A stretch of DNA of 64,000 nt from contig CAVUFF010000002.1 in the NCBI GenBank assembly GCA_963740655.1, forward strand, positions 17,790 to 81,789, read 5' to 3'. Of the stretch, positions 880 through 19,440 are shown piece after piece. The position numbers and the translations under genes are program-made. The notes beneath the pieces were generated by a model that searched no databases, was not told the DNA's origin, and was given only the letters and a program-made list of their open reading frames with translations. This DNA comes from an uncultured Acidobacteriota bacterium. Its GTDB lineage: Bacteria; Acidobacteriota; Vicinamibacteria; Fen-336. Numbering within the stretch: the stretch's first letter is position 1; each line of letters opens with the position of its first letter.

Positions 880-920
880 ATGAAGCAGACGAAGCCAGAG
901 CATATTGGAGCTTCGCAGCT
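880..920 (+). repeat. attC fragment (attC-0: L'' remnant, centre and start of right arm), cut on both sides by IS elements
   Basis: ATGAAGCAGACGAAGCCAGAGCATATTGGAGCTTCGCAGCT matches the other attC copies. It continues at 4024. Confidence 0.6.
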
Positions 921-1236
921 GATATGGCACGCCCCCGTGTCAACCCTGTGAGCGGGTCTGTTCGTCGGTCGCTGTTGGTTCTCTAGGCAAGCCTCCGACA
1001 GGACGCCCAGACGGCGGACGAGGCGAAGCGGCGTCGACGACGAGTCACGCTGATATGCGCGGGTTGAGCCGGGAATCGGCTCAGAGCCGCATGACCGTGT
1101 TCCGTCGGGAGTGACCGCGCTCTTAAGACGCGAGTCACGGAGTGAGCCCCGTGTCGCAAAGCTGCGTCGCGGATTCTCCGGATCGTTGCTCGCCTCGTCC
1201 GCCGTCGGGGAGTTCTGTGCACATGAAGAAGGCTAA

Positions 1237-2711
1237 CAGCCCGTGGTGAAGGAGACAGCCCGTGGTGAAAGTCCTGAACGGACCCGCCTTGGATATTACG
1301 TAGTGTAGTTTGCGGGTATGGCGATGGGAAAGAGAAGGAAGCGACCGCAGGAGACGATGTGGGTTGCGACGAGAGACCTGCCGAAGAGCCCTGGGCATCC
1401 CTTCTATAAGCGGTTGAATCAGGTTCTGGCGGCAAACAGCTTCGACGCGTTCGTCGAGGCCGCGTGCCGGCGGTTCTACGCGGCGAAGATGGGTCGGCCG
1501 AGTCTGCCACCGGGGCGGTACTTCCGGCTGATGCTGCTGGGGTACTTCGAGGGTTTGGGTTCGGAGCGCGGGATGGCGTGGCGAGCGGCGGACTCTCTGG
1601 CGATCCGGAGCTTCCTGGGCTTGGAACTGGACGAGGCGGCGCCGGATCATTCGACGATTTCAAGGACGCGTCGGCTGATCGACGTGGGGACGCACGAGCG
1701 AGTGTTCACGTGGGTGCTGGAGCGGCTGGCCAAGCAGGGTCTGTTGGTCGGCGCGACGATCGGGATCGACGCGACGACGCTCGAGGCGAACGCGGCGATG
1801 CGAAGCATCGTGCGACGGGACACGGGAGCGAGCTACGAAGAGTTCCTGAAGGGACTGGCGAAGGCGTCGGGGATCAAGACACCGACGCGGGAAGCGCTGG
1901 CGCGGCTGGATCGGCGGCGCAAGAAGAAGGCTTCCAACGACGACTGGACGAGTCCCTCGGACCCCGACGCGAAGATCACGAAGATGAAGGACGGGCGGAC
2001 GCACTTGGCCCACAAGGCGGAGCACGCGGTTGACGTGGACACGGGTGCGATCGTGGCGGTGACGGTGCAGGGAGCGGATCAAGGCGACACGAGCACGATC
2101 GGCAAGACGCTGGAGGAGGCGCAAGAGCAGCTCGACACGGTGATGGAGAAGGTGGACGAGCTTCACGCTGACGGCCTCTGCGAGGTCGTGGCGGACAAGG
2201 GCTACCAGAGCGATCGGATCATGGTCGAGCTCGAGGAGCAGGGGCTGCGTTCGTACGTGTCGGAGCCGGACCGCGGACGTCGCAAGTGGAAGGACGACAT
2301 CCTTGCTCAGCAAGCGGTGTACGCCAATCGCCGGCGCATCCGCGGTGAGCGAGGCAAGCGGCTACACCGGATGCGAGGCGAACTGATCGAGCGCCCCTTC
2401 GCGCACCTGTACGAAACCGGGGGCATGCGACGCACCCACCTCCGGGGTCACACAAGTATTCTGAAACGCCTGCTGATTCACGCGGCCGGCTTCAACCTGG
2501 GCCTGGTGATGCGGACCTCAATCGGCGTCGGCACTCCGCGAGGACTCCAGGGAGTGCTGCAAGCCCTCCTCTGCTCGCTTGCGCGCCTCACGAGCTCGCT
2601 GGCTGCCGCCTTGGATGGCCTCATCGCCGATTCGGCTGTCGAAACCGCTCCGGCCGCACGCCTGCGAACACATCCGCAGGGCAGGCTGAAGATGGCTTTT
2701 GCCACGGGCTG
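1237..2711 (+). mobile_element. IS1182-family (IS5/IS1182 superfamily) IS nested in IS110-like copy 1
   Basis: Perfect 10-bp terminal inverted repeat CAGCCCGTGG / CCACGGGCTG and a 4-bp target duplication CTAA (1233-1236 and 2712-2715). The uninterrupted site GGCTAAGCGG is seen in copy 2 at 12315-12324. Confidence 0.85.
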
Positions 2712-2715
2712 CTAA
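1318..2715 (+). CDS. IS1182-family DDE transposase
   Basis: 465-aa ORF MAMGKRRKRPQETMWVATRDLPKSPGHPFYKRLN...PDHSTISRTRRL...VADKGYQSD...RPFAHLYETGGMRRTHLRG. The stop lies in the duplicated CTAA. Confidence 0.85.
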   Translation: MAMGKRRKRPQETMWVATRDLPKSPGHPFYKRLNQVLAANSFDAFVEAACRRFYAAKMGRPSLPPGRYFRLMLLGYFEGLGSERGMAWRAADSLAIRSFLGLELDEAAPDHSTISRTRRLIDVGTHERVFTWVLERLAKQGLLVGATIGIDATTLEANAAMRSIVRRDTGASYEEFLKGLAKASGIKTPTREALARLDRRRKKKASNDDWTSPSDPDAKITKMKDGRTHLAHKAEHAVDVDTGAIVAVTVQGADQGDTSTIGKTLEEAQEQLDTVMEKVDELHADGLCEVVADKGYQSDRIMVELEEQGLRSYVSEPDRGRRKWKDDILAQQAVYANRRRIRGERGKRLHRMRGELIERPFAHLYETGGMRRTHLRGHTSILKRLLIHAAGFNLGLVMRTSIGVGTPRGLQGVLQALLCSLARLTSSLAAALDGLIADSAVETAPAARLRTHPQGRLKMAFATGC

Positions 2716-3830
2716 GCGGAACGCAGGGCAGCGAGCGGCGACAGCGCTGCCCAGATGAAGCCCGTGAGCTCTCGGGCCATTGCGACGACGGCCTTCTGGG
2801 GTGACACACCACGCAGGGTCATGGAGTAGTAGCGTCGGTGCAGGCGCAGCATGGCGCGGTCTGCCAAGGCGATCAGCTTTGGCGACTGGCCCTCGCGGCG
2901 ACGACGCAGGGCGCTTCCGACGTGGGGACGATGTCTGTAGTTCCAGGCAGCCTCGATCAACAGGCGCCGGACGTGGCTGTTTCCGGTCTTGGTGATGGAG
3001 CCCTGACGACGAGTGTCGCCCGAGCTGTGCTCGCTCGGCACGAGCCCGACGAAGCCCATAAGGCGGCGCGGCGAAGTGAAGCGTTCGAAGTTGTGCAACT
3101 CGACCGCGAGACCGACGGCGGTCACGGTATCGATGCTGCGGAAACAGCGCAACGCCGCGACGACGGCTGCGTAGCGAGGGTCCTGTGCCAGGCGCTCGAG
3201 GTGAGCGAGCAACGCCAACAGACGTTGTTCGCAGTGATCGATGGCGAGAAGGTAGTCCGAGACGACGACCTTCTCGAAGAGATCGTCGAAGCGAAGGGAC
3301 TCGAGCCAGAGCCGGTGGGTGCTGGTCCACGCGCGCTTGCCCGGAGTGAAGGTGATGCCGCGTCGCAGCAGGTACTTGCTGAGGCGATGGCGAGCACGCA
3401 TCCGGTCCTCACGCAGGTCCTCGCGAGCGCGAGACAGATCGCGCGCCGCCTCGTCCGCCTGGCTGAGCGGCTGGACCTCGGTGAGAAGTCCGGCGCGCAG
3501 CAGCATGGCGAGCTTGCGTGCGTCACGGCGATCGGTCTTGACGCGAGCGCCAGGCTTGGCCGGGATCAGCGACGGAGCGACCAGCATGCAGCTGGCCTCG
3601 CTCCAGGACGTGATCTGGCGCTGCAGCGCATAGCCGCACGGCCCGGCTTCGTAGCAGTAGCGCACCTCGCCCCCCGCCGCCTCCCGCGAGATCCGCTGCA
3701 GCATCCCGCGAATCGGCTTCGGCTCGTTCGCAACCCGCCACTCCAAAGGCCTCTCCTGACCCGGCAGCAGCACAGCTACCTGGATCCACGCTTTGTGCAC
3801 GTCGAGCCCCACGAAGGTGATACCCTGCAT
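2712..3830 (-). CDS. IS110-family transposase (IS110/IS1111-like element, copy 1)
   Basis: 372 aa from MQGITFVGLDVHKAWIQVAVLL...RVKTDRRDARKLA...RSIDTVTAVGLAVELHNFERFTSPRRLMGFVGLVPSEHSSGD..ITKTGNSHVRRLL. Identical to 12317-13435. Confidence 0.85.
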   Translation of the reverse strand: MQGITFVGLDVHKAWIQVAVLLPGQERPLEWRVANEPKPIRGMLQRISREAAGGEVRYCYEAGPCGYALQRQITSWSEASCMLVAPSLIPAKPGARVKTDRRDARKLAMLLRAGLLTEVQPLSQADEAARDLSRAREDLREDRMRARHRLSKYLLRRGITFTPGKRAWTSTHRLWLESLRFDDLFEKVVVSDYLLAIDHCEQRLLALLAHLERLAQDPRYAAVVAALRCFRSIDTVTAVGLAVELHNFERFTSPRRLMGFVGLVPSEHSSGDTRRQGSITKTGNSHVRRLLIEAAWNYRHRPHVGSALRRRREGQSPKLIALADRAMLRLHRRYYSMTLRGVSPQKAVVAMARELTGFIWAALSPLAALRSA

Positions 3831-4023
3831 TGCCGGCTCCTTTCGTATGCGGCTCTGGCGTCTCGCACGCCAATCCGCGCTTTGTGGCGGCCGTTCGCCG
3901 CCTGTGTCGCCAGTTGCTCTAGCGACTTTACGATTCGGAGCCGGCACTTCGCTCTTCCCTAGTTCCCTCGCTCGGCGTACTCTCTGCATGCCACGCCCTC
4001 CTCCAGGGGCGTGCCATATGGTC

Positions 4024-4041
4024 TTATCCTCGGTGTTAGGC
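4024..4041 (+). repeat. attC-0 right arm and R' core (GTTAGGC 4035-4041)
   Basis: TTATCCTCGGTGTTAGGC directly after the IS end. Canonical GTTRRRY. Confidence 0.7.
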
Positions 4042-4095
4042 CGACCATCAGGCAGCGGTCGTGCGGCCGCGCAAACACAACGTACGGAGGGCAAG

Positions 4096-4827
4096 ATGGC
4101 AGCCACGCTAGAGGAGCGATCCCCCGAGGAGACCAAGCGGGTCGCGCGGCTCGCGGGCGCCGTGTATGTGTCGCTCGGGCTCGCGACGGCCTTTGGCTTC
4201 TATCACGCGCCCTTGGTCCAGAGCGACCTCAGCGCCATCGCCCACGGGCTGACAAAGTCCGACCTCCGCTTCCGCATCGGGGTGGTGACCGACGTGCTCT
4301 CCGCGGCGCTGTCGGTACCCTTGGCCCTGCTGCTCTATCAGTTGCTCAAGCCGGTCCACAAGATGCAGGCGGTGCTGATGGCCCTGCTGCTGTTGGTCGC
4401 GATGCCCATCTCATTCGTCGTCGCGCTCAACTACGTCGCGGCGCAATGGCTCCTTAGCGGGGCCCCCGTGGTCGCGGCCCTCGCCAGCGCGGAGCGGGAG
4501 GCGCTTGGGATGCTCTTCCTCCGCCTGCACACGCACGGCGTGCTGGCGGTAGAGATCTTCTGGGGGCTGTGGCTGCTGCCGTTCGGCCTGCTCGTCATGA
4601 AGTCGCGTTTTCTTCCTCGCGTGCTGGGCATCCTACTCGTCATCGCGGGCGTGGCCTATGTGGCGCATAGCGTCGTCTCGCTGCTGCTGGATGGGCCACG
4701 CATCATCCTGTACGAGCGGGTGACGATGTTGGCGCGCGCCGCCGGCGAGTTCCCGATCATGCTTTGGCTCCTGATCAAGGGAGCGGACGTGCGAGGCGAG
4801 CGTGAGAGCGGCCTAACAAGGGGATGA
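4096..4827 (+). CDS. Polytopic membrane protein (DUF4386-like), cassette ORF
   Basis: ATG at 4096 after the attC. 243 aa with several hydrophobic helices. The stop TGA 4825-4827 lies inside GGGGATGAAGC of the next attC. Family call is from memory. Confidence 0.6.
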   Translation: MAATLEERSPEETKRVARLAGAVYVSLGLATAFGFYHAPLVQSDLSAIAHGLTKSDLRFRIGVVTDVLSAALSVPLALLLYQLLKPVHKMQAVLMALLLLVAMPISFVVALNYVAAQWLLSGAPVVAALASAEREALGMLFLRLHTHGVLAVEIFWGLWLLPFGLLVMKSRFLPRVLGILLVIAGVAYVAHSVVSLLLDGPRIILYERVTMLARAAGEFPIMLWLLIKGADVRGERESGLTRG

Positions 4828-4839
4828 AGCAGATGGAAG
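4811..4839 (+). repeat. attC-1 left part (R'' GCCTAAC, class A L'')
   Basis: GCCTAACAAGGGGATGAAGCAGATGGAAG, interrupted at 4840 by an IS3 element. Confidence 0.75.
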
Positions 4840-4851
4840 TGACCCGCTTTC

Positions 4852-5181
4852 GTGGACACCCGAGAAGAGGCGTATATGGGTGTTATGGAGCGATGGAAGC
4901 GACGGTCGTACACGAGGGAGTTCAAGGCCGAGACGGTCCGGCTGGTGGTCGAGGGAGGACGGTCGATCCCGGACGTCGCGCGGGACCTTGAGCTAACCGA
5001 GTCGGCGCTTCGTCTGTGGGTGCATCAGGCGGAGGTCGATGCGGGAAGAGGCAAGCCAGGCGAGCTCACCACTGCAGAACGCCAAGAACTGGCGCAGCTG
5101 CGCCGCGAGGTGAAGACGCTGCGGCTCGAGCGGGAGATCCTGAAAAAAGCGGCGGCCTTCTTCGCGAAGGAGAACGGGTGA
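4852..5181 (+). CDS. IS3 OrfA (HTH transposase subunit); start uncertain (4852, 4876 or 4885)
   Basis: MERWKRRSYTREFKAETVRLVVEGGRSIPDVARDLELTESALRLWV...LRREVKTLRLEREILKKAAAFFAKENG. Confidence 0.8.
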   Translation: MDTREEAYMGVMERWKRRSYTREFKAETVRLVVEGGRSIPDVARDLELTESALRLWVHQAEVDAGRGKPGELTTAERQELAQLRREVKTLRLEREILKKAAAFFAKENG

Positions 5182-6053
5182 AGTTTGCTTTCATCCACGC
5201 GGAGGGGGCCAAGCTGCCCACGAGTCTCCTGTGCCGTGCCTTGAGGGTGTCGCGGAGCGGCTTCTACGCTTGGAGCAAGCGCCCACCGTCGAGACGAGCC
5301 GTCGAGGATTCCAAGCTGGTCCCGGTGATCCGTGCCTGTCACGCCCAGAGTCGGGCGACCTACGGCAGCCCACGTGTGCACAAGGATCTTCAGGCGCTGA
5401 GCTACCGCGTGTCGCGCAAGCGCGTCGCCCGCCTGATGCGTCGCGAGGGCCTTTCGGCGCGGCCGCCGCGACGCTATCGAGCCACGACCGAGTCGAAGCA
5501 CTCCCTGCCGATCGCCCCCAACGTCGTCGCCCGCGAGTTCCACGCCCCGGCGCCAAACCGGGTGTGGGTAACGGACATGACTTACATCTGGACTTGGGAA
5601 GGCTGGTTGTTCCTGGCTGCGATCGTGGATGTCTTCTCGCGTCGCGTGGTCGGCTGGGCAATGGCCGACCACCTGCGCACGGAGCTTCCGCTCGAAGCGC
5701 TCGGGATGGCGCTCGGCATTCGTCAGCCGGAGCGCGGTCTCGTCCACCACTCGGATCGTGGCTGTCAATACGCGAGCGAGATCTATCGGGCCGAGCTCGA
5801 CGCGCGTGGCATCGTCTGCAGCATGAGCCGCGTCGGCGACTGCTGGGACAACGCGGTCGCCGAGAGCTTCTTCGCCACCCTGAAGACGGAGCTCATTCAC
5901 CGACGTCCTTGGCCGACGAAGGCTGAGGCACGCTCGGCCGTCCACGACTACATCGGAGCGTTCTTCAATCCGCACCGGCGTCACTCGTCCCTCGGTTACG
6001 TCAGCCCGATGGACTTCGAACGACAACACGCTGCCGCGACCGTGGCAGCATAG
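5016..6053 (+). CDS. IS3 OrfB frame (DDE integrase-like catalytic domain; expressed as OrfAB)
   Basis: ..PNRVWVTDMTYIWTWEGWLFLAAIVDVFSRRVVGWAM...HHSDRGCQYAS...GDCWDNAVAESFFATLKTE. Confidence 0.85.
   Translation: MGASGGGRCGKRQARRAHHCRTPRTGAAAPRGEDAAARAGDPEKSGGLLREGERVKFAFIHAEGAKLPTSLLCRALRVSRSGFYAWSKRPPSRRAVEDSKLVPVIRACHAQSRATYGSPRVHKDLQALSYRVSRKRVARLMRREGLSARPPRRYRATTESKHSLPIAPNVVAREFHAPAPNRVWVTDMTYIWTWEGWLFLAAIVDVFSRRVVGWAMADHLRTELPLEALGMALGIRQPERGLVHHSDRGCQYASEIYRAELDARGIVCSMSRVGDCWDNAVAESFFATLKTELIHRRPWPTKAEARSAVHDYIGAFFNPHRRHSSLGYVSPMDFERQHAAATVAA
5143..5149 (+). other. Candidate programmed -1 frameshift site (AAAAAAG) joining OrfA to OrfB
   Basis: A6G heptamer in the orfA/orfB overlap, as is typical for IS3-family elements. 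Confidence 0.6.
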
Positions 6054-6078
6054 CGGGGCTGTCCACGGAAACGGGTCA

Positions 6079-6135
6079 ACTCCAAGACGAAACCTGAGCA
6101 TAATGGAGCTTCGCAGCTTATCCCCGGTGTTGGGC
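6079..6135 (+). repeat. attC-1 right part (class A L', R' GTTGGGC 6129-6135)
   Basis: ..AGACGAAACCTGAGCATAATGGAGCTTCGCAGCTTATCCCCGGTGTTGGGC. Confidence 0.75.
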
Positions 6136-6189
6136 AGGCTCTTTTCCTAGCATACTTCGTCGCATACTTCGTAGATCGCTGAGGACAGG

Positions 6190-6603
6190 ATGCCAGAGAC
6201 CTTTGTGGCAGCTCAACCGCGCTGGAGCATCGCACCCTACTTCATAGTCGATGACGTCGTCGCAACGGCCAACTATTACCGCGACAAACTCGGCTTTGCC
6301 TAGGAACGCTTCTGGAACGATCCTCCATCCTTCTGCATGGTTCAACGTCGTGGCGTCGTCATCATGCTGGCCCAACTCGAGCAGCCCGGTGTCATGCGGC
6401 CTAACCGTCTCGTCGATCCGGAGGGCGGAGCCTGGGACACCTATATCTGGGTCGACGATGCGGACGCGCTGAATGCCTCGTTCAAGTTGAAGGGCGTCAA
6501 GATCACGCGAGACATTTGTGATCAACCCTACGGGTGCCGCGACTTCGACGTTGAGGACTGCAACGGCTATCGTCTCTGTGTTGGGCACGACACGGAACGC
6601 TGA
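6190..6603 (+). pseudogene. VOC (glyoxalase/bleomycin-resistance) family cassette gene with an in-frame amber stop
   Basis: MPETFVAAQPRWSIAPYFIVDDVVATANYYRDKLGFA-TAG(6301-6303)-ERFWNDPPSFCMVQRRGVVIMLAQ...GCRDFDVEDCNGYRLCVGHD. One continuous frame of ~137 codons. Confidence 0.65.
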
Positions 6604-6640
6604 AGCCGCTCTCTGCTTACGCTCGGTTCATGGTAGCGCT

Positions 6641-6712
6641 GCCCAACAATGCGTTGCAGCTGACGAAGCCGGCGCAAGCGATGGAGCTTCGCAGCTGAAC
6701 GCAGTGTTCTGC
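6641..6712 (+). repeat. attC-2 (class C arms: AATGCGTT(G)CAGC / GCTGAACGCAGT; R'' GCCCAAC, R' GTTCTGC)
   Basis: Same architecture and central GACGAAGCCGGCGCAAGCGATGGAGCTTCGCAGC as the other copies, but both outer arms are changed in a complementary way. Confidence 0.75.
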
Positions 6713-6753
6713 GGACATGCTGGGTGGAGGAAGCGCTCGCTGAGCCAACCTGC

Positions 6754-7140
6754 ATGAGAACTCGAGTTGCCCACATGGTCGGGGTAGCTGCCTTGGGAAT
6801 CCTGCTCCTGTCGTGTAGTGACGACTGCCGCGGTATCGAGAGCGCGAGTTGTGCCCCGCAGTTGGTGATCAGAGCCACAATTTCGAGTGCCGCTGACGGC
6901 GGGCCGGTACAGAACGTGTTGCTGCAGGTATCGAGTGGTGCCCCGACCATGTGCTCGATTGAAACCAAGGTCACCGTGTGCGATGTGTGGGGCTTTTCAG
7001 GTACCTTTACGCTCGTCGTGGCTGCTCCGGGCTTCCAGAGTACCGAGCGCGACATCACCGTCAAGGGCGAGAACCGCCCATGCAGCTGCCCGATAGCGGT
7101 CAGAGAGAACGTGGCGGTGTCACTGTCACCCATCCCTTGA
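6754..7140 (+). CDS. Hypothetical lipoprotein, cassette ORF
   Basis: MRTRVAHMVGVAALGILLLSC: signal peptide with lipobox. Cys-rich beta-type sequence. No family recognised. Confidence 0.55.
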   Translation: MRTRVAHMVGVAALGILLLSCSDDCRGIESASCAPQLVIRATISSAADGGPVQNVLLQVSSGAPTMCSIETKVTVCDVWGFSGTFTLVVAAPGFQSTERDITVKGENRPCSCPIAVRENVAVSLSPIP

Positions 7141-7190
7141 GGACCAGGTCGAGCTAGTGCAGGTCAGCTCGTCCGTACGAAGACCGAGCC

Positions 7191-7263
7191 GCAGAACAAG
7201 GGGATGAAGCAGACGAAGCCGGCGCAAGCGATGGAGCTTCGCAGCTTATCCCCGGTGTTCGAC
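7191..7263 (+). repeat. attC-3 (class A; R' GTTCGAC)
   Basis: GCAGAACAAGGGGATGAAGCAGACGAAGCCGGCGCAAGCGATGGAGCTTCGCAGCTTATCCCCGGTGTTCGAC. Confidence 0.8.
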
Positions 7264-7301
7264 CGACCGAGAGGACCCCACCGGGCAGGCCGTGCTGCTA
7301 G

Positions 7302-7585
<284 letters not shown>

Positions 7586-12316: not shown

Positions 12317-13435
12317 CTAAGCGGAACGCAGGGCAGCGAGCGGCGACAGCGCTGCCCAGATGAAGCCCGTGAGCTCTCGGGCCATTGCGACGACGGCCTT
12401 CTGGGGTGACACACCACGCAGGGTCATGGAGTAGTAGCGTCGGTGCAGGCGCAGCATGGCGCGGTCTGCCAAGGCGATCAGCTTTGGCGACTGGCCCTCG
12501 CGGCGACGACGCAGGGCGCTTCCGACGTGGGGACGATGTCTGTAGTTCCAGGCAGCCTCGATCAACAGGCGCCGGACGTGGCTGTTTCCGGTCTTGGTGA
12601 TGGAGCCCTGACGACGAGTGTCGCCCGAGCTGTGCTCGCTCGGCACGAGCCCGACGAAGCCCATAAGGCGGCGCGGCGAAGTGAAGCGTTCGAAGTTGTG
12701 CAACTCGACCGCGAGACCGACGGCGGTCACGGTATCGATGCTGCGGAAACAGCGCAACGCCGCGACGACGGCTGCGTAGCGAGGGTCCTGTGCCAGGCGC
12801 TCGAGGTGAGCGAGCAACGCCAACAGACGTTGTTCGCAGTGATCGATGGCGAGAAGGTAGTCCGAGACGACGACCTTCTCGAAGAGATCGTCGAAGCGAA
12901 GGGACTCGAGCCAGAGCCGGTGGGTGCTGGTCCACGCGCGCTTGCCCGGAGTGAAGGTGATGCCGCGTCGCAGCAGGTACTTGCTGAGGCGATGGCGAGC
13001 ACGCATCCGGTCCTCACGCAGGTCCTCGCGAGCGCGAGACAGATCGCGCGCCGCCTCGTCCGCCTGGCTGAGCGGCTGGACCTCGGTGAGAAGTCCGGCG
13101 CGCAGCAGCATGGCGAGCTTGCGTGCGTCACGGCGATCGGTCTTGACGCGAGCGCCAGGCTTGGCCGGGATCAGCGACGGAGCGACCAGCATGCAGCTGG
13201 CCTCGCTCCAGGACGTGATCTGGCGCTGCAGCGCATAGCCGCACGGCCCGGCTTCGTAGCAGTAGCGCACCTCGCCCCCCGCCGCCTCCCGCGAGATCCG
13301 CTGCAGCATCCCGCGAATCGGCTTCGGCTCGTTCGCAACCCGCCACTCCAAAGGCCTCTCCTGACCCGGCAGCAGCACAGCTACCTGGATCCACGCTTTG
13401 TGCACGTCGAGCCCCACGAAGGTGATACCCTGCAT
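12317..13435 (-). CDS. IS110-family transposase (copy 2)
   Basis: Translation identical to 2712-3830. Confidence 0.85.
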   Translation of the reverse strand: MQGITFVGLDVHKAWIQVAVLLPGQERPLEWRVANEPKPIRGMLQRISREAAGGEVRYCYEAGPCGYALQRQITSWSEASCMLVAPSLIPAKPGARVKTDRRDARKLAMLLRAGLLTEVQPLSQADEAARDLSRAREDLREDRMRARHRLSKYLLRRGITFTPGKRAWTSTHRLWLESLRFDDLFEKVVVSDYLLAIDHCEQRLLALLAHLERLAQDPRYAAVVAALRCFRSIDTVTAVGLAVELHNFERFTSPRRLMGFVGLVPSEHSSGDTRRQGSITKTGNSHVRRLLIEAAWNYRHRPHVGSALRRRREGQSPKLIALADRAMLRLHRRYYSMTLRGVSPQKAVVAMARELTGFIWAALSPLAALRSA

Positions 13436-13628
13436 TGCCGGCTCCTTTCGTATGCGGCTCTGGCGTCTCGCACGCCAATCCGCGCTTTGTGGCGGCCGTT
13501 CGCCGCCTGTGTCGCCAGTTGCTCTAGCGACTTTACGATTCGGAGCCGGCACTTCGCTCTTCCCTAGTTCCCTCGCTCGGCGTACTCTCTGCATGCCACG
13601 CCCTCCTCCAGGGGCGTGCCATATGGTC

Positions 13629-13646
13629 TTAACTCCAGTGTTGGAC
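13629..13646 (+). repeat. attC-8 right arm (class B; R' GTTGGAC)
   Basis: TTAACTCCAGTGTTGGAC directly after the IS end. Confidence 0.75.
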
Positions 13647-13671
13647 AGACCTCGTAGATGGGGCGCTTGGG

Positions 13672-14004
13672 TTGAGAATCACGATCTTCCAGATCAAGCT
13701 GGTCCACACCATCATCTTCTGGATCCTGAGCCTGTGTACCGTCTACGCGCTCTTCAGCGGCATTGCCGACCGAATCAACGTCTGGACTTGGGTCGCCGTG
13801 GCTTTGCTCCTTTTCGAGAGCATCGTCCTCGTAGTGTCCGGCTGGACATGCCCGCTGACGCTCCTCGCCGAGCGTCAGGGGGCGCTACAGGGTTCCGTGA
13901 CGGACATCTTCCTCCCGAAATGGTTTGCCGACCGAATCTTCCCGATATGCGGCACCATGTACGCGGTCGCACTCGTCCTCATTCTCTGGCGCGTATTCCG
14001 GTAG
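13672..14004 (+). CDS. Small 3-4 TM membrane protein with GW-x-CPLT motif (TTG start), cassette ORF
   Basis: 110-aa ORF; ..VVSGWTCPLTLLAERQGALQGSVTDIFLPKWFADRIFPI.. Shares the CPLT motif with 15280-15687. Confidence 0.5.
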   Translation: MRITIFQIKLVHTIIFWILSLCTVYALFSGIADRINVWTWVAVALLLFESIVLVVSGWTCPLTLLAERQGALQGSVTDIFLPKWFADRIFPICGTMYAVALVLILWRVFR

Positions 14005-14084
14005 CATGGCCGGCATGGTTCCGCCGAACGAACAACGGGGCCGACTCAACGGTGCGGCCGAGCGTGTCGTTCAAAGACGGGGCT

Positions 14085-14157
14085 GCCCAACAAGGAGTTG
14101 AAGTGACGAAGGCTGCGCTTCGCGCTGGGTCTTCGCAGCTTAACCCCAGTGTGAGGC
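14085..14157 (+). repeat. attC-9 (class B-like; degenerate R' GTGAGGC)
   Basis: GCCCAACAAGGAGTTGAAGTGACGAAGGCTGCGCTTCGCGCTGGGTCTTCGCAGCTTAACCCCAGTGTGAGGC. Confidence 0.7.
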
Positions 14158-14194
14158 GGACCCCGCAGGGCGCGACGCAGACGTACGGTCGCTC

Positions 14195-14653
14195 ATGCCA
14201 ATCATCTCGACTTTCTTCGGCATCGTGATTCGGATGTACTACAAGGAGCACGCGCCTCCCCACTTCCATGCCGAGTACCAAGGCCAGCAGGGCACCTTCG
14301 ATTTCTCCGGCCAGCAATTGGCGGGCAACGTGAAGTCAGGCACGGCGGGCGTTACTCTTGATCCGCGAGTGGGCGACCGAACCTCTCGAGTGAGGTACCT
14401 CATGAGCTTCTTGCCGAGCGTAGTCAAGGCAGAGTACCGAGGCGGTCACCGCATTCACCTCTGGCTTAATGACGGACAGGAGAAGACCGTGGACTTTGGG
14501 CAGTGGCTCCAAGGACCGGTCTTCGAGCTGCTGAAGGACTCCACCTTCTTTCAGCGATTCTTCGTCGAAGCCGGCACCGTCAGTTGGCCCAACGGGGCTG
14601 ACATCGCGCCCGAGACCCTCTACTCGGCGCAAGGGGTCGAAGAGGCCGCCTAA
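14195..14653 (+). pseudogene. DUF4160-like gene fused by a frameshift (~14328-14340) to a DUF2442-like gene (own ATG at 14402)
   Basis: MPIISTFFGIVIRMYYKEHAPPHFHAEYQGQQGTFDF.. is DUF4160-like. Its expected C-terminus RALLLIREWATEPLE-TGA (14391-14393) sits in another frame. MSFLPSVVKAEYRGGHRIHLWLNDGQEKTVDF..GPVFELLKD..VSWPNGADIAPETLY is DUF2442-like. Confidence 0.65.
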
Positions 14654-14719
14654 CAAGGAGTTGAAGCTGACGAAGTAGGGTCAACTTCGGAGCTTCGCAG
14701 CTTGACTCCGGTGTTCGCC
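14648..14719 (+). repeat. attC-10 (class B-like; R'' GCCTAAC, R' GTTCGCC)
   Basis: GCCTAACAAGGAGTTGAAGCTGACGAAGTAGGGTCAACTTCGGAGCTTCGCAGCTTGACTCCGGTGTTCGCC. Confidence 0.8.
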
Positions 14720-14808
14720 GGACGTCTTGGACGTTCTCGAGCGCGGTCTCTGCGCACACCGTCGTTGCCTGGCAGGCAAGCAGCGCACCGCTCTGGTCGG
14801 CTGCATGG

Positions 14809-15054
14809 TTGCCGTGGCAGAATACGGCCATGGAGAATCGCTACACCGGAGTGTTCGAGCAGGTGGGCGACTGGTGGATCGGGCACGTCGAGGAGTTGCC
14901 TGGGTGCAACGTGCAGGAGCGGTCGCTTGAAGAGGCTCGCGAGAGCCTGAAGGAAGCCATCCAGCTCATCGTTCAAGCCAATCGAGAGCTGGCAAGGCGC
15001 GAATCGGAAGGTCACGAGGTGGTTCGCGAGGCACTCGCCGTTTCGGTTGAATGA
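14809..15054 (+). CDS. hicB: HicB-family antitoxin (start 14809 or 14830)
   Basis: MENRYTGVFEQVGDWWIGHVEELPGCNVQERSLEEARESLKEAIQLIVQANREL. Confidence 0.75.
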   Translation: MPWQNTAMENRYTGVFEQVGDWWIGHVEELPGCNVQERSLEEARESLKEAIQLIVQANRELARRESEGHEVVREALAVSVE

Positions 15055-15242
15055 AGCGCGCAGAGCTGGTTCGCCACCTTACCAGCCAGGGCTGCGAGTT
15101 GTTGCGCGAAGGTGGCCGCCACTCAATCTACTGGAATCCGGCCAATCGCAATACTGCGGCGGTGCCTCGCCACAGCGAGATTCTCACGCCAGTGGTGAAC
15201 CGGATCTGCAAGGATCTTGGTATCCCGCGGCCTGGTGAGTAG
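15051..15242 (+). CDS. hicA: HicA-family toxin
   Basis: MKRAELVRHLTSQGCELLREGGRHSIYWNPANRNTAAVPRHSEILTPVVNRICKDLGIP. 4-nt overlap with hicB. Confidence 0.8.
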   Translation: MKRAELVRHLTSQGCELLREGGRHSIYWNPANRNTAAVPRHSEILTPVVNRICKDLGIPRPGE

Positions 15243-15279
15243 ATCGACGGACGTAGCAACGGAGCGACGCGGACGGCTC

Positions 15280-15687
15280 ATGATCGACCGATGGCTCACC
15301 GACCTGACGGTCACGGCCCACTTCGCGTTCTTGGCATTTGTGGTGGCCGGCGGCCTCTTGACACGACGCCACCGATGGATGAGCGTCCCACACCTGCTGT
15401 CTGTTGCGTGGGCCGTATACGTAGAGGCAACACCAGGCTTGGTGTGTCCACTGACGCCGCTCGAGAACTACTTCGCGGCACGGGCCGGTCGGGCTGGTTA
15501 CGAGGGCAGCTTTATCGAGCACTACCTGGTGCCCATCATCTATCCGGATGGGCTAACGCCAGCTCTGCAGCTCACCTTGGCTGGTGTTGTGTTGGGACTC
15601 AACTTAGCCGTGTACGCCTGGTCACCGCTGCGCCGGTATTTCAGTCGGGAGCGGCGTGGTGCAGCGCACAGCCCCGACCAGGCCTAA
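15280..15687 (+). CDS. DUF2784-like membrane protein
   Basis: ..HFAFLAFVVAGGLL...VEATPGLVCPLTPLENYFAARAGRAGYEGSFIEHYLVPIIYPDGLT.. No attC separates it from hicA. Confidence 0.65.
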   Translation: MIDRWLTDLTVTAHFAFLAFVVAGGLLTRRHRWMSVPHLLSVAWAVYVEATPGLVCPLTPLENYFAARAGRAGYEGSFIEHYLVPIIYPDGLTPALQLTLAGVVLGLNLAVYAWSPLRRYFSRERRGAAHSPDQA

Positions 15688-15709
15688 GAGTTGAGTGGAG
15701 CGCGGCGCC

Positions 15710-15780
15710 GTCGAACAAGGGGATGAAGCAGACAAGCGTTGAGCGTGTTGGACGCTCGCAGCTTATCCCCGGTGTTCGAC
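15710..15780 (+). repeat. attC-11 (class A outer arms; inner stem variant AGCG/CGCT; R' GTTCGAC)
   Basis: GTCGAACAAGGGGATGAAGCAGACAAGCGTTGAGCGTGTTGGACGCTCGCAGCTTATCCCCGGTGTTCGAC. Confidence 0.8.
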
Positions 15781-15826
15781 GGACAGCGGCGAGTGCACTG
15801 GAGGCCGGGCCGTGTAGGAGTGTTCG

Positions 15827-16489
15827 GTGACTGAGTTCCTGAGGCAGTACGGCGCGCACGTGGCGGCCTGGGTACGCGTCGGGTCGATCCTTGTTGCCTG
15901 TGCCAGTCTAGTAGTCCTGGCTTACGTGGTCTGGTCACGCAGAGCACACGCCTGGTCCGCTCGCCGGAGGCGCACTGTCAGACTGCTGAGCCTCAACGGT
16001 CTCGGTATCGCGGTCGGTGGCGTAATCGTGGCGTTCGGTCCAATGAGCCCTCTCTTCGGGACAGCGCGGGTGCTCGACAACCGCGTCGGGACTCCCGCGC
16101 CCGAGATGGTGTTTCGGCTCGTCGAGGGTGGGGTCGAGAGACGGTTGAGCGACTTCCGGGGCAAGGTGGTACTGATCAACCTCTGGGCAACCTGGTGCCC
16201 GCCGTGCCGTCGGGAGTTGCCGGTTCTGAACCGCTTGCATGGCAGCTACTCGGAGCGCGGTCTTGTGGTCGTGACACTAACGGACGAGTCAGCCGAGCAA
16301 GCGCGTGCGGTACTTCATAGCCAGGCGCCCGAGACCGTAAACGGCACCATCGACTCCTTTGGCTGGCTTGCGATCAGGGACTTTCGGCCCTTCACGCTGA
16401 TCGTGGATCGGAACGGAGTTCTCCGCGAGTACCTGTTTGGGGATCAGGCGTACGAAGCGTTCGAGTCTCGGATCCGTCCGTATCTGTAG
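15827..16489 (+). CDS. Membrane-anchored TlpA/ResA-like thiol:disulfide oxidoreductase, cassette ORF (GTG start)
   Basis: N-terminal TM segments, then ..FRGKVVLINLWATWCPPCRRELPVLNRL.. (WCPPC thioredoxin motif). Confidence 0.8.
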   Translation: MTEFLRQYGAHVAAWVRVGSILVACASLVVLAYVVWSRRAHAWSARRRRTVRLLSLNGLGIAVGGVIVAFGPMSPLFGTARVLDNRVGTPAPEMVFRLVEGGVERRLSDFRGKVVLINLWATWCPPCRRELPVLNRLHGSYSERGLVVVTLTDESAEQARAVLHSQAPETVNGTIDSFGWLAIRDFRPFTLIVDRNGVLREYLFGDQAYEAFESRIRPYL

Positions 16490-16503
16490 ATAGCGAGGGA
16501 GCT

Positions 16504-16576
16504 GTCGAACAAGGGGATGAAGCAGACTAAGCCGGCGCAAGCGATGGAGCTTCGCAGCTTGTCCCCAGTGTTGTCC
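16504..16576 (+). repeat. attC-12 (class A; R' GTTGTCC)
   Basis: GTCGAACAAGGGGATGAAGCAGACTAAGCCGGCGCAAGCGATGGAGCTTCGCAGCTTGTCCCCAGTGTTGTCC. Confidence 0.8.
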
Positions 16577-16629
16577 CGATTCCTCAAGGGCGACGCGCTG
16601 TCCTGACGTGACAAGGCATTTGCCCGAGT

Positions 16630-17025
16630 GTGCATGTGGACCTCCTGCTCGAGATCCTGTTTCAGCTCATCATCGAGGTCGGGTTGGACGCAGGTCTCGA
16701 GATGCTTACCGACAGCGGCGGCGCCAAGTCCCGCAGCGTTCCCGAGGTAACGGATAGCTGGCTCTTCGTCATCACTCGTCTCTTCGTTGTAGGGGCGCTC
16801 TTGGGTGGGCTGAGCTTACTGTTCTGGCCAAAACGAACTGTGTCACCAGGACCCATCCCCGGCCTAAGCTTGATACTGGCTCCCGCTGCCGTCGGTGCCG
16901 TCATGCACCTCTGGGGTAAGTATCGAACTGCGCGTGGCCACGCCACGACTACGCTCGCCACGTTCGCAGGCGGTGCCGCATTCGCTCTCGGGACCGCGGT
17001 GGTACGCTTCCTTGGTGCGCACTAG
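16630..17025 (+). CDS. Hypothetical small membrane protein, cassette ORF
   Basis: 131-aa ORF with about 4 hydrophobic helices. No family recognised. Confidence 0.5.
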   Translation: MHVDLLLEILFQLIIEVGLDAGLEMLTDSGGAKSRSVPEVTDSWLFVITRLFVVGALLGGLSLLFWPKRTVSPGPIPGLSLILAPAAVGAVMHLWGKYRTARGHATTTLATFAGGAAFALGTAVVRFLGAH

Positions 17026-17062
17026 GCGATGCAGATCATGAAGGTCGCCTGAACACGATGCG

Positions 17063-17132
17063 GGACAACAAGGAGTTGAAGCTGACGAAGCCAAGCGTAT
17101 TGGAGCTTCGCAGCTTATCCCCGGTGTTGTGC
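17063..17132 (+). repeat. attC-13, chimeric (class B left arm, class A right arm; R' GTTGTGC)
   Basis: GGACAACAAGGAGTTGAAGCTGACGAAGCCAAGCGTATTGGAGCTTCGCAGCTTATCCCCGGTGTTGTGC. Confidence 0.8.
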
Positions 17133-17163
17133 GGACTTCCGCGAGTGCCAGCAGGCGGCTAGA

Positions 17164-17391
17164 ATGGCTAGCGGAGGTGGCTGGGTGACGTTCCAGGTTG
17201 AACTCGAGCGCGAAGCAGACGGGCGCTGGATCGCCGAGGTCACCGACTTGCCTGGTGTCCTCGCCTACGGCGCCACGCAGGACGAAGCCCAAGCCAAGGT
17301 GCAAGCCCTCGCCCTACGAGTTATGGCCGAGCGACTTGAGCATGGCGAAGCCGGCCCTCAACTTCTGGACATCTCCTTTCGAGCGGCGTGA
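17164..17391 (+). CDS. hicB: HicB-like (UPF0150) antitoxin
   Basis: ..WVTFQVELEREADGRWIAEVTDLPGVLAYGATQDEAQAKVQALALRVMAERLEHGE. Confidence 0.7.
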   Translation: MASGGGWVTFQVELEREADGRWIAEVTDLPGVLAYGATQDEAQAKVQALALRVMAERLEHGEAGPQLLDISFRAA

Positions 17392-17601
17392 CCAACTGGC
17401 CGAGCACCAAGGCGCAGAGGGTGCTCGCAGCGCTGCTGCGTATCGGCTGGACCGTAAAGCGTCAATCGGCTTCGCATCGCACGCTTTCTCGGGAAGGCTG
17501 GCCCGACTTCGTTATTCGCCTTTCATGATGGCGACGAAATCGGTCCGCAAATGCTGGCCCGCATCGCCAAGCGAACTGGGTTGACCCCTGGTGATCTCTA
17601 G
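17388..17601 (+). pseudogene. hicA: HicA/YcfA-like toxin, frameshifted near 17513-17515
   Basis: GTGA overlap with hicB. VTNWPSTKAQRVLAALLRIGWTVKRQSASHRTLSREGWPDFV, then after a 1-nt shift FAFHDGDEIGPKMLARIAKRTGLTPGDL-TAG. Confidence 0.65.
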
Positions 17602-17612
17602 AACACGATGCC

Positions 17613-17684
17613 GCACAACAAGGAGTTGAACCTGACGAAACCCGGTAAACTTCGGAGCTTCGCAGCTTAACTCCAGTGTTGGGC
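17613..17684 (+). repeat. attC-14 (class B; R' GTTGGGC)
   Basis: GCACAACAAGGAGTTGAACCTGACGAAACCCGGTAAACTTCGGAGCTTCGCAGCTTAACTCCAGTGTTGGGC. Confidence 0.8.
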
Positions 17685-17727
17685 GGACAATTGGGGAGTT
17701 GATCGGCGAAGCCGGCCGAGGGCTGTT

Positions 17728-18084
17728 GTGGCGAAGAAACCACGTACGATCGACGAGTATCTGGCTGGTCAGGACCCCGAGAGTCGCGCCGCCCTACAGA
17801 AGGTGCGCCGAGCGATCCTGGCGGTGGCACCCAAGGCCGAGGAATGCATCAGCTACGGCATGCCCGCGTTCCGGCTGAACGGGAAGCTGATCGCCGGTTT
17901 CCGCGCCGCGGCAAACCACTGCTCCTTTCATCCGATGAGCGGCACTACGGTGGCGACACTATGGGCAGAGTTGTCGGAGTACGACACGAGCCCCGGGACC
18001 ATCCGATTCTCGGCGCGCGATCCATTGTCAGCCACCCTTGTTCGCAAGCTGGTGAAGGCGAGACTCGCGGAACTCGCCGGGTGA
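17728..18084 (+). CDS. DUF1801 (YdhG-like) protein, cassette ORF (GTG start)
   Basis: MAKKPRTIDEYLAGQDPESRAALQKVRRAILAVAPKAEECISYGMPAFRLNGKLIAGFRAAANHCSFHP. Confidence 0.7.
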   Translation: MAKKPRTIDEYLAGQDPESRAALQKVRRAILAVAPKAEECISYGMPAFRLNGKLIAGFRAAANHCSFHPMSGTTVATLWAELSEYDTSPGTIRFSARDPLSATLVRKLVKARLAELAG

Positions 18085-18099
18085 CATGGCTGGGCCCCG

Positions 18100-18133
18100 C
18101 TGGAGGCTTCGCAGCTTATCCCCGGTGCTAGGC
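18100..18133 (+). repeat. Truncated attC-15 (right arm only, class A; mutated core GCTAGGC)
   Basis: ..TGGAGGCTTCGCAGCTTATCCCCGGTGCTAGGC. No R''/L'' is present upstream. Confidence 0.6.
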
Positions 18134-18153
18134 GGACCTGTGTTGGGGGCGGG

Positions 18154-18684
18154 ATGAAGGCATCGGTCTTTGTAGGGGCGAGCGTGGATGGCTTTATCGC
18201 TCGGCTGAATGGCGACCTCGATTGGCTACCGCAAGATGCTGAGCCTCACGGCTACGACGAGTTCATTGCATCCGTCGACACCATCGTCATCGGCCGGAAG
18301 ACGTTTGAGATCGTTCTCGGTTTCGACACGTGGCCATACGGCAAGAAGCTGGTTGTGGTCCTGAGCAGCCAGCATGTCGACTTGTCGGTCGCGGTTGCCC
18401 GCGGAGGCGTCGTGGAGCAAATGGGGGGGTCGCCGACAGACATCGCGTCGAGCCTCATTGCTCGTGGAGTGCAGCACGTCTACGTAGACGGCGGCATCAC
18501 GATTCAACGCTTCCTACGGGCCGGCCTTGTCAACCGTCTGGTCATCACGCGCGTGCCGGTGCTCATTGGCGCGGGCATTCCGTTGTTCGGGCCCGTGCCG
18601 AAGGACATCCGATTGCGTCACGTCGCGACCCGGTCCTATCCGAGTGGCCTCGTCCAGAGCGAGTATGAAGTGGGAGCCGCCTAA
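18154..18684 (+). CDS. Dihydrofolate-reductase-like protein (RibD C-terminal domain family), cassette ORF
   Basis: MKASVFVGASVDGFIARLNGDLDWL..DTIVIGRKTFE...VYVDGGITIQRFLRAGLVNRLVITRVPVLIGAGIPLF. Confidence 0.75.
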   Translation: MKASVFVGASVDGFIARLNGDLDWLPQDAEPHGYDEFIASVDTIVIGRKTFEIVLGFDTWPYGKKLVVVLSSQHVDLSVAVARGGVVEQMGGSPTDIASSLIARGVQHVYVDGGITIQRFLRAGLVNRLVITRVPVLIGAGIPLFGPVPKDIRLRHVATRSYPSGLVQSEYEVGAA

Positions 18685-18744
18685 CAAGGAGCAGCAGACG
18701 AAGCCGAGCCAATGGCGCATCGCAGGCTTATCCCCGTGGTGGGC
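18679..18744 (+). repeat. attC-16 (degenerate; R'' GCCTAAC, R' eroded to GGTGGGC)
   Basis: GCCTAACAAGGAGCAGCAGACGAAGCCGAGCCAATGGCGCATCGCAGGCTTATCCCCGTGGTGGGC. Confidence 0.6.
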
Positions 18745-18844
18745 GGACATCGTAGGCTCTGGCCGGCCAGTCAGGCACCGCGAATCGTGGGGGACGTGCC
18801 GTGCGGAATGCTACACTAGCGTTCGTACTTAGAGAGGTAGCCAC

Positions 18845-19222
18845 ATGACAGCTGCAGCGAGTCCCTCACTCCGCTTCTCCTACTCGGCGGCGCTGCAAAA
18901 GCGTACGAAGGCGGTTGTGGCGCGAATAGAGCGTGACGACGACGCTACTCAGCACGCAGCTGCGTTGTCGAGCATTGTCAGCGAGCTAACCCGAGCCGGG
19001 TTGGATTACTACTTCCTGCGTCCGCTCGAGCAAGCGAAGTTCAGCTTCGTGGCTCGACAGACGGCCAAGCTTGGTGTCGCTGGAGCCCTGCACTTCATAT
19101 CGCCGATGGTCGGCAGAATCCTGGCGGGCGCAGACACACCTCAGCTGCGCGGCGTGGCCGCGCACATCCGCCACCTGACGGAGAGCTCTCGCGGGGAGCG
19201 GCGCCGCCCAACAAGGGAATGA
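18845..19222 (+). CDS. Hypothetical protein, cassette ORF
   Basis: 125-aa ORF, predicted helical, no family recognised. The stop TGA lies inside AACAAGGGAATGAAGC. Confidence 0.5.
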   Translation: MTAAASPSLRFSYSAALQKRTKAVVARIERDDDATQHAAALSSIVSELTRAGLDYYFLRPLEQAKFSFVARQTAKLGVAGALHFISPMVGRILAGADTPQLRGVAAHIRHLTESSRGERRRPTRE

Positions 19223-19273
19223 AGCTGGCCGTCATAACGCGGCATGGTCGGCCTGCTGGTGTCCTTGTTGGGT
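19206..19273 (+). repeat. Possible atypical attC-17 (GCCCAACAAGGGA...TCCTTGTTGGGT), or only a left arm joined to a gene remnant
   Basis: The outer 11 nt are complementary and end in GTTGGGT, but the right arm lies within codons of a Phd-like remnant. Confidence 0.35.
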
Positions 19274-19401
19274 GTGGTACGGAAGAAGACTGGTTCGACT
19301 ACCGCCCAGCCCATCACCCCGACTTCGTCCGTCGCATCCGCAAGGCTAGGGCGGACATCGCGAGCGGCCGTGGCACCAGGCTCGGGGATCTCCCCGCGTG
19401 A
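19219..19401 (+). pseudogene. Phd/YefM-like antitoxin remnant (N-terminally truncated)
   Basis: ..AVITRHGRPAGVLVG..EEDWFDY.. matches the Phd/YefM core. The usual ~25 N-terminal residues are absent and no toxin follows. Confidence 0.45.
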
Positions 19402-19411
19402 TCATGCGGCG

Positions 19412-19440
19412 GTGCAACAAGGAGGTGAAGTTGATGAAGC
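19412..19440 (+). repeat. Terminal attC left-arm remnant
   Basis: GTGCAACAAGGAGGTGAAGTTGATGAAGC with no matching right arm. This is the last attC-like sequence in the window. Confidence 0.45.

Follow-up and report, generated by a model that had tools for sequence, protein, structure and literature searches.

Most of the first 19.3 kb of the DNA analysed here, a 64-kb stretch of contig CAVUFF010000002.1 (hereafter the window), is very probably the distal part of a genuine chromosomal integron cassette array. In integrons, the bottom strand of an attC site folds into an imperfect hairpin that the integron integrase, a tyrosine recombinase, binds and cuts at a conserved triplet; cassettes are excised by attC x attC recombination and re-inserted at attI, beside the integrase gene (intI) and a promoter. 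An earlier note on this DNA had placed an integron-type array at 880-19440, where it was indeed located, although eroded cassettes were found to continue to at least ~21.4 kb. Its recognition of attC architecture in the repeats is now supported by their geometry, by covariation, by a register test, by a match to a class 1 attC and by the link to integrases of family TIGR02249. Each unit would be a mobile cassette consisting of one open reading frame (ORF) or a toxin-antitoxin (TA) pair followed by its attC. At least 18 sites are in view and the window edge cuts the array, which has the chromosomal location, the length and the homogeneous attC sites of a sedentary chromosomal integron.

The repeat family was first found by anchoring on two arm motifs, which gave repeats of 67-73 nt. 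A covariance model (R1), built from an alignment of 13 window repeats (71% mean column identity) with the hairpin drawn by hand, was then run on both strands of the full window with filters off. R1 returned 17 matches with E <1e-5, all on the + strand and spanning 880-19274, its minus-strand matches being only weak mirror images of the same palindromes; none reached E <1e-5 in the other 44.7 kb of the window, where the top score was 14.9 bits (E 0.08). The inventory came to 14 intact sites, three split by insertion sequences (IS), one represented by its right arm only and two left-arm remnants, in agreement with the earlier count of about 19 co-oriented ~70-bp repeats; the left arm of the first site, A0, lies outside the window, beyond the insertion sequence at its left edge (IS-L). 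A generic repeat search of the window missed most of the sites, a strict RYYYAAC...GTTRRRY regular expression recovered only 3 of them because the outer box positions deviate, and an Rfam scan of the window gave no family at the gathering threshold, there being no Rfam attC family. With insertion sequences removed, the units measure 449-1061 bp, a range slightly wider than, and otherwise close to, the 0.55-1.1 kb first estimated. The lower GC content previously remarked on was also found (0.620 in the array minus IS, 0.668 at 19274-24000 and 0.725 at 24001-64000).

On the top strand the sites consist, in order, of R'' (7 nt, e.g. GCCCAAC), 5 nt (AAGGG), L'' (8 nt, GAT[G]AAGC), a 6-bp stem, a loop, L' (7 nt, GCTTATC), 6 nt and R' (GTTGGGC), a layout (7+5+8 ... 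7+6+7 nt) that corresponds to the canonical attC order and spacing. The heptamers quoted in the earlier note (GTTAGGC at 4035 and 9064; GTTGGGC at 6129, 7900, 8444 and 17678) are correct, and the unpaired left-arm base it described is an extra G in every intact site (GGGGAT[G]AAGC versus GCTTATCCCC). The AAC triplet occurs in 16 of 16 readable R'' boxes and GTT in 15 of 18 R' boxes (exceptions GTGAGGC, GCTAGGC and GTGGGCG), and the outer R'' positions often depart from strict RYYY (e.g. GTCGAAC, GCAGAAC). In the proposed fold 85.7% of cells are paired, versus 31-40% for slid registers, with both-sided changes at 9 pairs. Across 150 related sites, columns 19/170 (G:C ~106, A:T ~37) and 21/167 (A:T 109, T:A 37) covary, as do stem columns 38-40/153-155.

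Folding of the bottom strand as single-stranded DNA, which had been proposed as a check, gave energies of -18 to -25 kcal/mol for A2, A5, A7, A11 and A17 (z -3.1 to -6.5 versus shuffles), including the divergent A17 (-18.2 kcal/mol, z -5.4); the folds of the divergent sites A9 and A16 were indistinguishable from shuffles (z -1.1 and +0.9). The 3' arm of the bottom strand reads GCTT[C]ATCCCC[T]TGTTGGGC, that is, a bulged base at position 16, then a 6-bp stem, then an unpaired T. Published descriptions of attC give an extrahelical base at position 16, usually G, a conserved T as the last such base and a 6-bp stem between them (PMC5027507), and the bulge position and spacing of the window sites match this, with the extrahelical bases at the canonical positions.

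Stable hairpins directly after ORFs could in principle be Rho-independent terminators, or another transcript-level RNA structure of a small-gene family, and some stop codons do lie within them: the TGA inside L'' is the stop of the four ORFs ending at 4827, 7852, 8394 and 19222, as the earlier note had observed. We consider this explanation scarcely credible, since the hairpins have no following T-run and match no Rfam family, their sequence is conserved over unrelated genes together with the asymmetric bulge and the AAC/GTT boxes, and the site of cassette 7 remains on the + strand even though the genes of that cassette are reversed. It is also contradicted by the register test, which is the most telling evidence for the attC reading. 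A G/TT crossover (slash, point of exchange) places the six bases after the G in the next cassette, so that R'' should complement the R' at its upstream boundary. When R'' of cassette n was compared with R' of site n-1, 90 of 96 variable positions matched, against 60 of 96 for R'' and the R' of its own site and 58.2 +/- 3.8 for random pairing; 0 of 20,000 permutations reached 90. This complementarity is the footprint of G/TT crossovers.

As a cross-check, three class 1 integrons were fetched from plasmids, the IntI of a relative serving as probe, and searched with R1, which had been built from the window alone. The model recognised the aac(6')-IIa cassette's attC (NZ_CP131874.1) with the correct strand and register (28.9 bits, E 6e-06); no other expected cassette attC was found in the three loci, with just 8.3 bits (E 3.6) near aadA5, and the sites missed are the longer or more divergent ones. 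On plasmid NZ_KP056256.1 (L067), a group II intron reverse transcriptase gene (ltrA, 3584-4933) lies directly after the aadA25 cassette. It presumably marks a group IIC-attC intron inside the aadA25 attC, which would account for the absent R1 match there.

When 185,579 species-representative genomes were searched for the right-arm pattern, 65 loci were obtained (the window's own genome not being among the matches), mostly in metagenome-assembled genomes (MAGs) of Acidobacteriota (Vicinamibacteria, Terriglobia, Thermoanaerobaculaceae, Pyrinomonadaceae), the other labels including NC10/Methylomirabilota, Myxococcota, Gammaproteobacteria, Anaerolineae and others. R1 found 254 matches in these loci, in co-oriented arrays; the matches occupy five consecutive 8-kb blocks, all +, on CAWHRC010000016.1 and three blocks, all -, on CAVUTB010000009.1. 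The family also occurs on short contigs binned as Saccharibacteria (L005), Woesearchaeota (L024), Frigidibacter (L010/L020), Firestonebacteria (L016) and Gaiellaceae (L046), reflecting either cross-phylum spread of cassettes or mis-binned integron contigs.

An integron integrase is encoded in 10 of the 65 loci; the four IntI proteins tested of these ten scored 387-420 bits on TIGR02249 (cut-off 265), and one of the four shares 49.8% identity with IntI1. The intI gene is immediately upstream of the array, in the orientation of the attC sites, in 9 of the 10 loci, and it occupies the upstream end of both large arrays in which that end is covered (CAWHRC010000016.1 and CAVUTB010000009.1). One locus (L032) has an attC upstream of its intI. 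The ~40-kb array of CAWHRC010000016.1 is headed by a tandem intI pair (L047, 140-2242): an upstream gene fragmented over several frames and an intact downstream one (341 aa). The intI genes of L002 (1776-2939) and L050 (6100-7250) look frameshifted, the break in L002 coming shortly before the catalytic C-terminus; true pseudogenes and long-read homopolymer errors are both possible explanations.

Single cassettes of the window share about 75-94% nucleotide identity with cassettes of foreign arrays in which the neighbours differ (Table 1), a pattern of cassette-by-cassette mobility. Intergenic palindromes of the REP (repetitive extragenic palindromic) or MITE (miniature inverted-repeat transposable element) type, unrelated to integrons, are a conceivable alternative, the repeats being imperfect, ~70 bp long and intergenic, and REP sequences being, like attC sites, known targets of IS1111 elements (PMC11187229). 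The window repeats, however, keep strictly to one orientation and one cluster, and on large related contigs their matches are limited to one or two co-oriented blocks instead of being spread along the contig; the dispersed copies that the earlier note had named as the mark of such elements were looked for and found neither outside 880-19274 in the window nor across the large related contigs. Together with the linkage to integron integrases, the G/TT recombination seen in the register test and the exchange of whole cassettes between genomes, this makes a REP or MITE origin very improbable.

Table 1. Features of the array and its distal end, in order of position. L-numbers are loci compared from other genomes; R1, attC covariance model; nt, nucleotide; tnp, transposase.
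Feature	Position	Strand	Content	Support and related sequences
IS-L, IS110/IS1111-type	1-879	-	Cut by window edge; frameshifted transposase	90% nt identity to L059 1523-2445
attC A0, middle	880-920	+	Rest of L'', stem, loop, L' to GCAG-CT	R1 880-923, 33.7 bits, E 4.6e-07, model positions 19-62
attC sites split by IS	880-920/4023-4041 (A0); 4811-4837/6093-6135 (A1); 10500-10552/13628-13646 (A8)	+		Sequence read
ISa copy 1, IS110 family	921-4022	-	~1.63 kb minus nested insert; tnp 2712-3824(-)	229 bits on NF033542
Nested IS1182/IS5-like element in ISa copy 1	1237-2710	+	Terminal repeats CAGCCCGTGG; 4-bp duplication CTAA	
attC A0, right end	4023-4041	+	CT-TATCCTC-GGT-GTTAGGC	Sequence read
Cassette 1	4036-6129	+	DUF4386 membrane protein 4096-4827; attC A1 split	Pfam DUF4386 122.6 bits; R1 4806-4862, 6056-6140
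IS3-family element	4838-6092		Splits attC A1; 3-bp duplication AGA	IS3 orfB 359 bits on NF033516
Cassette 2	6130-6706	+	ORF 6337-6603, 88 aa, no family; attC A2 6641-6712	R1 72.8 bits
Cassette 3	6707-7257	+	ORF 6724-7140, 138 aa, no family; attC A3 7191-7263	R1 89.3 bits
Cassette 4	7258-7900	+	TA pair, BrnT toxin 7317-7535 (frameshifted) and ORF 7586-7852; attC A4 7836-7906	Pfam BrnT_toxin; R1 89.1 bits; whole cassette 94% nt identity to L002 1146-421
Cassette 5	7901-8444	+	DUF3788 protein 7924-8394; attC A5 8378-8450	Pfam 64.3 bits; R1 96.4 bits
Cassette 6	8445-9064	+	ORF to 8987, weak DUF7919 match only; attC A6 9000-9070	Pfam, R1
Cassette 7	9065-9836	-	Gp49/HigB-like 9366-9713(-), HTH_37 antitoxin within 9065-9562(-); attC A7 9771-9842(+)	Pfam Gp49 75.1, HTH_37 81.2 bits; HigBA-like, 86-93% nt identity to L053, L054, L020
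Cassette 8	9837-13640	+	ORF 9834-10454, weak EcsC match; attC A8 split by ISa copy 2	R1 10495-10582, 40.1 bits
ISa copy 2	10553-13627	as copy 1	Duplicate of copy 1; splits attC A8	
Nested IS1182/IS5-like element in ISa copy 2	10619-12066	-	Duplication CTAG	
Cassette 9	13641-14151	+	Membrane ORF 13672-14004, 110 aa; attC A9 14085-14157	R1 70.6 bits
Cassette 10	14152-14713	+	DUF4160 and DUF2442 ORF 14195-14653; attC A10 14648-14719	Pfam; R1 85.7 bits
Cassette 11	14714-15774	+	HicB/UPF0150-like 14809-15054, DUF2784 15217-15687; attC A11 15710-15780	Pfam; R1 92.8 bits
Cassette 12	15775-16570	+	AhpC/TSA-redoxin-like 15827-16489; attC A12 16504-16576	Pfam; R1 79.1 bits; 74% identity to L051
Cassette 13	16571-17126	+	ORF 16630-17025, 131 aa, no family; attC A13 17063-17132	R1 86.5 bits
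Cassette 14	17127-17678	+	HicB-like ORF 17164-17391; attC A14 17613-17684	Pfam weak; R1 85 bits; with cassette 15 82% nt identity to L051, attC intact there
Cassette 15	17679-18127	+	DUF1801 protein 17728-18084; attC A15 right arm only	Pfam; see cassette 14
attC A15, right arm only	~18100-18133	+	R' GCTAGGC	Sequence read; R1 10.6 bits
Cassette 16	18128-18739	+	RibD_C (dihydrofolate-reductase-like) 18154-18684; attC A16 18679-18745	Pfam 60.9 bits; R1 58.9 bits; 90% nt identity to L050, first cassette beside intI
Cassette 17	18740-19267	+	ORF 18845-19222, no family; divergent attC A17 19206-19273	R1 33.2 bits, E 6.4e-07
Left-arm-only remnant	19411-19440	+	GTGCAAC-AAGGA-GGTGAAG...GATGAAGC	Sequence read; not significant for R1
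Fossil cassette	20797-21400	+	Hexapeptide O-acetyltransferase 20801-21358, then L''-like stub (CGAGGCGACGAAGCA)	L054 alignment
Left-arm remnant of fossil cassette	~21364-21400	+		Sequence read

The cargo (DUF proteins, small membrane proteins and TA modules) is typical of sedentary chromosomal integrons. The earlier description of the cassettes as TA-rich is upheld by Pfam matches to BrnT, to a reverse-strand Gp49/HigB protein with its HTH_37 partner and to two HicB-like proteins. The BrnT gene of cassette 4 is split over two frames (7317-7535, with the remainder in the frame of 7204-7614), through either pseudogene formation or sequencing error, and the ORF at 7586-7852, in the antitoxin position, is intact.

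Several observations weigh against reading the region as an integron array. As the earlier note had stated, no integrase is in view: no IntI-like sequence was found in the 64-kb window by tblastn with a relative's IntI (best E 1.9), nor is an attI or a Pc promoter visible in the window, the integrase-proximal end being beyond its left edge. Several attC sites are disrupted or eroded and the BrnT gene is frameshifted, in keeping with an array in partial decay. On the bottom strand, position 16 has an extrahelical C where G is usual, the extra top-strand base being G in 150 of 150 related sites. The central spacer is reduced, not absent: GGG/CCC are paired and only a 1x2 internal loop is left, so that the top and bottom strands are about equal in how well they fold, a departure from the best-studied attC sites. 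Finally, no recognisable attC lies within 10 kb of pdxST, the backbone locus of the window described below, in two close relatives (L069 and L070).

Notwithstanding these points, the proposed arrangement has intI and attI left of position 1 on the + strand (an 'inverted integrase'), beyond IS-L and at least one further cassette. The related copy of IS-L in L059 is ~1.39 kb long, so IS-L should end ~510 bp left of position 1, and the missing left arm of A0 is expected beyond it, in which case the array continues left of the window. By analogy with the relatives, and because the array leaves the window on its integrase-proximal side, an upstream intI on the + strand is reasonably likely. Cassettes distant from the promoter would then be mostly silent, save those with promoters of their own, such as the reverse HigBA-like pair.

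Alternatively, the sites may be real attCs with no functional intI adjoining them on the replicon, the gene perhaps having been lost or separated by IS-mediated rearrangement, so that cassettes would move only with IntI supplied in trans. Such clusters of attC sites lacking integrases (CALINs) were reportedly recognised by Cury et al. in 2016 and are said to be a common category in IntegronFinder surveys. The 64-kb window without intI, the five IS insertions in 19 kb of array (three in attC sites and two nested in the element ISa), the eroded distal sites and the frameshifted or degenerate intI of some relatives (e.g. L002 and L050, where long-read errors are possible) would all suit a CALIN. 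On the other hand, the array exits the window at the left, the side on which polarity places attI and intI; both large related arrays with a covered upstream end possess intI; and the attC sites are highly homogeneous and mostly intact. We therefore regard a CALIN as possible but the less probable outcome, and an array still headed by its integrase as the better reading.

Three of the attC sites are interrupted by insertion sequences and would no longer be able to recombine. IS-L entered the L'' arm of A0 (GGGGA/TGAAGC), the identical attC point being used in L059, where the transposase of the intact copy reaches 322 bits on NF033542 (IS110 family RNA-guided transposase). Both copies of ISa lie in the L' arm (GCAG-CT/IS/CT-TATCC) with a duplicated CT dinucleotide and in one orientation; the element has sub-terminal inverted repeats ATATGGCACGCCCC and its longer non-coding region downstream of tnp, as do IS1111 members, which target attC sites by means of a guide RNA (PMC11187229). 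With an IS110-family transposase and a fixed position and orientation in attC, IS-L and ISa appear, from their sequences, to belong to the IS1111-attC group. In the downstream non-coding region of ISa (921-1236), AAAGCTGCG and GCGAAGC are the reverse complements of the target sequences CGCAGCTT and GCTTCGC. This stretch could be a guide segment, although the best complementarity to the attC target, an 8-nt plus a 7-nt match, is not significant and the 8-mer is near chance expectation (~0.3 8-mers by chance, by our own estimate).

Each ISa copy carries a nested IS1182/IS5-like element. In copy 1 its ORF (1318-2715) has DUF772 and DDE_Tnp_1 domains and an IS1182 entry as its top NCBIfam match, below cut-off. 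The two nested elements share 72.6% nucleotide identity and sit at different positions in opposite orientations; each has landed in the non-coding part of ISa downstream of tnp, where IS1111 members encode the guide RNA, and may thus have disabled its ISa copy.

Beyond ~19.3 kb the array appears to decay into fossil cassettes, to at least ~21.4 kb. The remnant at 19411-19440 has no matching right arm, and the acetyltransferase gene that follows shares 89% nucleotide identity with a cassette of L054 that has an intact attC on each side; the window copy lacks a right arm, and the alignment to L054 shows its attC to be eroded. The best NCBIfam resemblance of the encoded protein is to maltose O-acetyltransferase, below cut-off. 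The right boundary at 19273 is therefore that of the last intact attC, not the end of cassette-derived DNA, and the GC rise across the distal end is gradual.

The host is a soil member of Acidobacteriota, probably of class Vicinamibacteria, and not Myxococcota-like as the earlier note had suggested, since the PdxS protein of the backbone (30696-31586, -) is 92-94% identical to proteins labelled Vicinamibacteria; the attC family itself is found mainly in Acidobacteriota MAGs. The backbone at 26961-43173 (pdxST, kinases, cytochromes) is syntenic with L069 and L070 at 84-86% nucleotide identity. A constant association of the array with the pdxST locus throughout the lineage was rejected, as neither of these two relatives has a significant attC there. 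In a tblastx comparison of the right flank, read at a cut-off of at least 70 bits, one MAG (L021), the only one so found, has attC sites ~3 kb from pdxT, with the relative orientation seen in the window. The locus adjoining pdxST thus seems to be variable in the lineage. In L069, uvrC directly follows the DUF488 gene, and the window tract from DUF488 (~26.96-27.33 kb) to the array has no counterpart; in L070 the tract is replaced by ~9 kb of small co-oriented genes with no recognisable attC sites, which may be old, fully eroded cassettes. Further right, the window carries a cluster of respiratory genes (45379-57917) encoding a NapC/NirT-type multihaem cytochrome (45379-46821, -), a cytochrome b (49918-50994, +) and a multihaem cytochrome of 782 aa that has TPR repeats (55569-57917, +), as well as two Ser/Thr protein kinases on the - strand (59555-61864 and 62013-63626).

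The array resembles the sedentary chromosomal integrons of Vibrio cholerae (the superintegron with its V. cholerae repeats, VCR) and Xanthomonas in its length, common orientation and homogeneous attC sites, in its small proteins of unknown function and TA cassettes, some of them reversed, and in a GC content below that of the backbone. It differs from them in the phylum of its host, in attC length (67-73 nt, versus roughly 120-130 nt for VCR) and in that its relatives have the integrase on the cassette strand, the integrase of the window array itself being outside view. The 'inverted integrase' arrangement is a known one (PMC13323075, which cites IntegronFinder 2.0); it is matched by 9 of the 10 related loci, so that this likeness comes from the relatives and not from the window. 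The class 1 attC of aac(6')-IIa shares box order, spacing and the L' core GCTTAA with the window attC; its extra top base is C (bottom G) and its spacer unpaired, whereas the window family has top G (bottom C) and a spacer paired save for the 1x2 loop.

The suggestion that the host context might be poorly explored was not borne out, as integrons have already been reported in Acidobacteriota (PMC8618304) and Ghaly et al. (2021) produced a taxon-specific covariance model for chromosomal Acidobacteria attC sites (PMC8352920); the window family, overwhelmingly found in Acidobacteriota MAGs, is presumed to be identical with theirs. The IS1111-attC group is likewise established (ISPst6, ISKpn4; Tetu and Holmes 2008; Post and Hall 2009), with a seekRNA mechanism (PMC11187229). 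IS-L and ISa resemble it in having DEDD transposases at fixed attC positions in one orientation, with a CT dinucleotide on each side in ISa, and are unlike it in that the two elements hit two positions, the L'' and the L' arm, of one attC family. Since Acidobacteriota integrons, inverted integrases, TA-rich arrays and attC-targeting IS1111 elements have all been described, the array is a further, good example of an established system and not a new kind of element, and it leaves the integron concept unchanged.

What it adds is a well-resolved long array from a soil phylum that is poorly represented in culture, with clear signs of recent cassette exchange (up to 94% nucleotide identity between MAGs), and a record of RNA-guided IS110/IS1111 elements specialised on an attC family. 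Because this natural family alters two of the three 'unpaired features' of strand selection (C16 and the paired spacer), it provides a test case for models of attC recognition. More tentatively, it may be a distinct recognition variant, with an invariant C16, a paired spacer and a co-oriented integrase, that is widespread in soil Acidobacteriota and spills into other phyla. If so, the choice of strand and the contacts of the integrase would not follow the Vibrio and class 1 paradigm, and at least two RNA-guided IS110/IS1111 lineages, each using a different arm, would have become specialised on the family.

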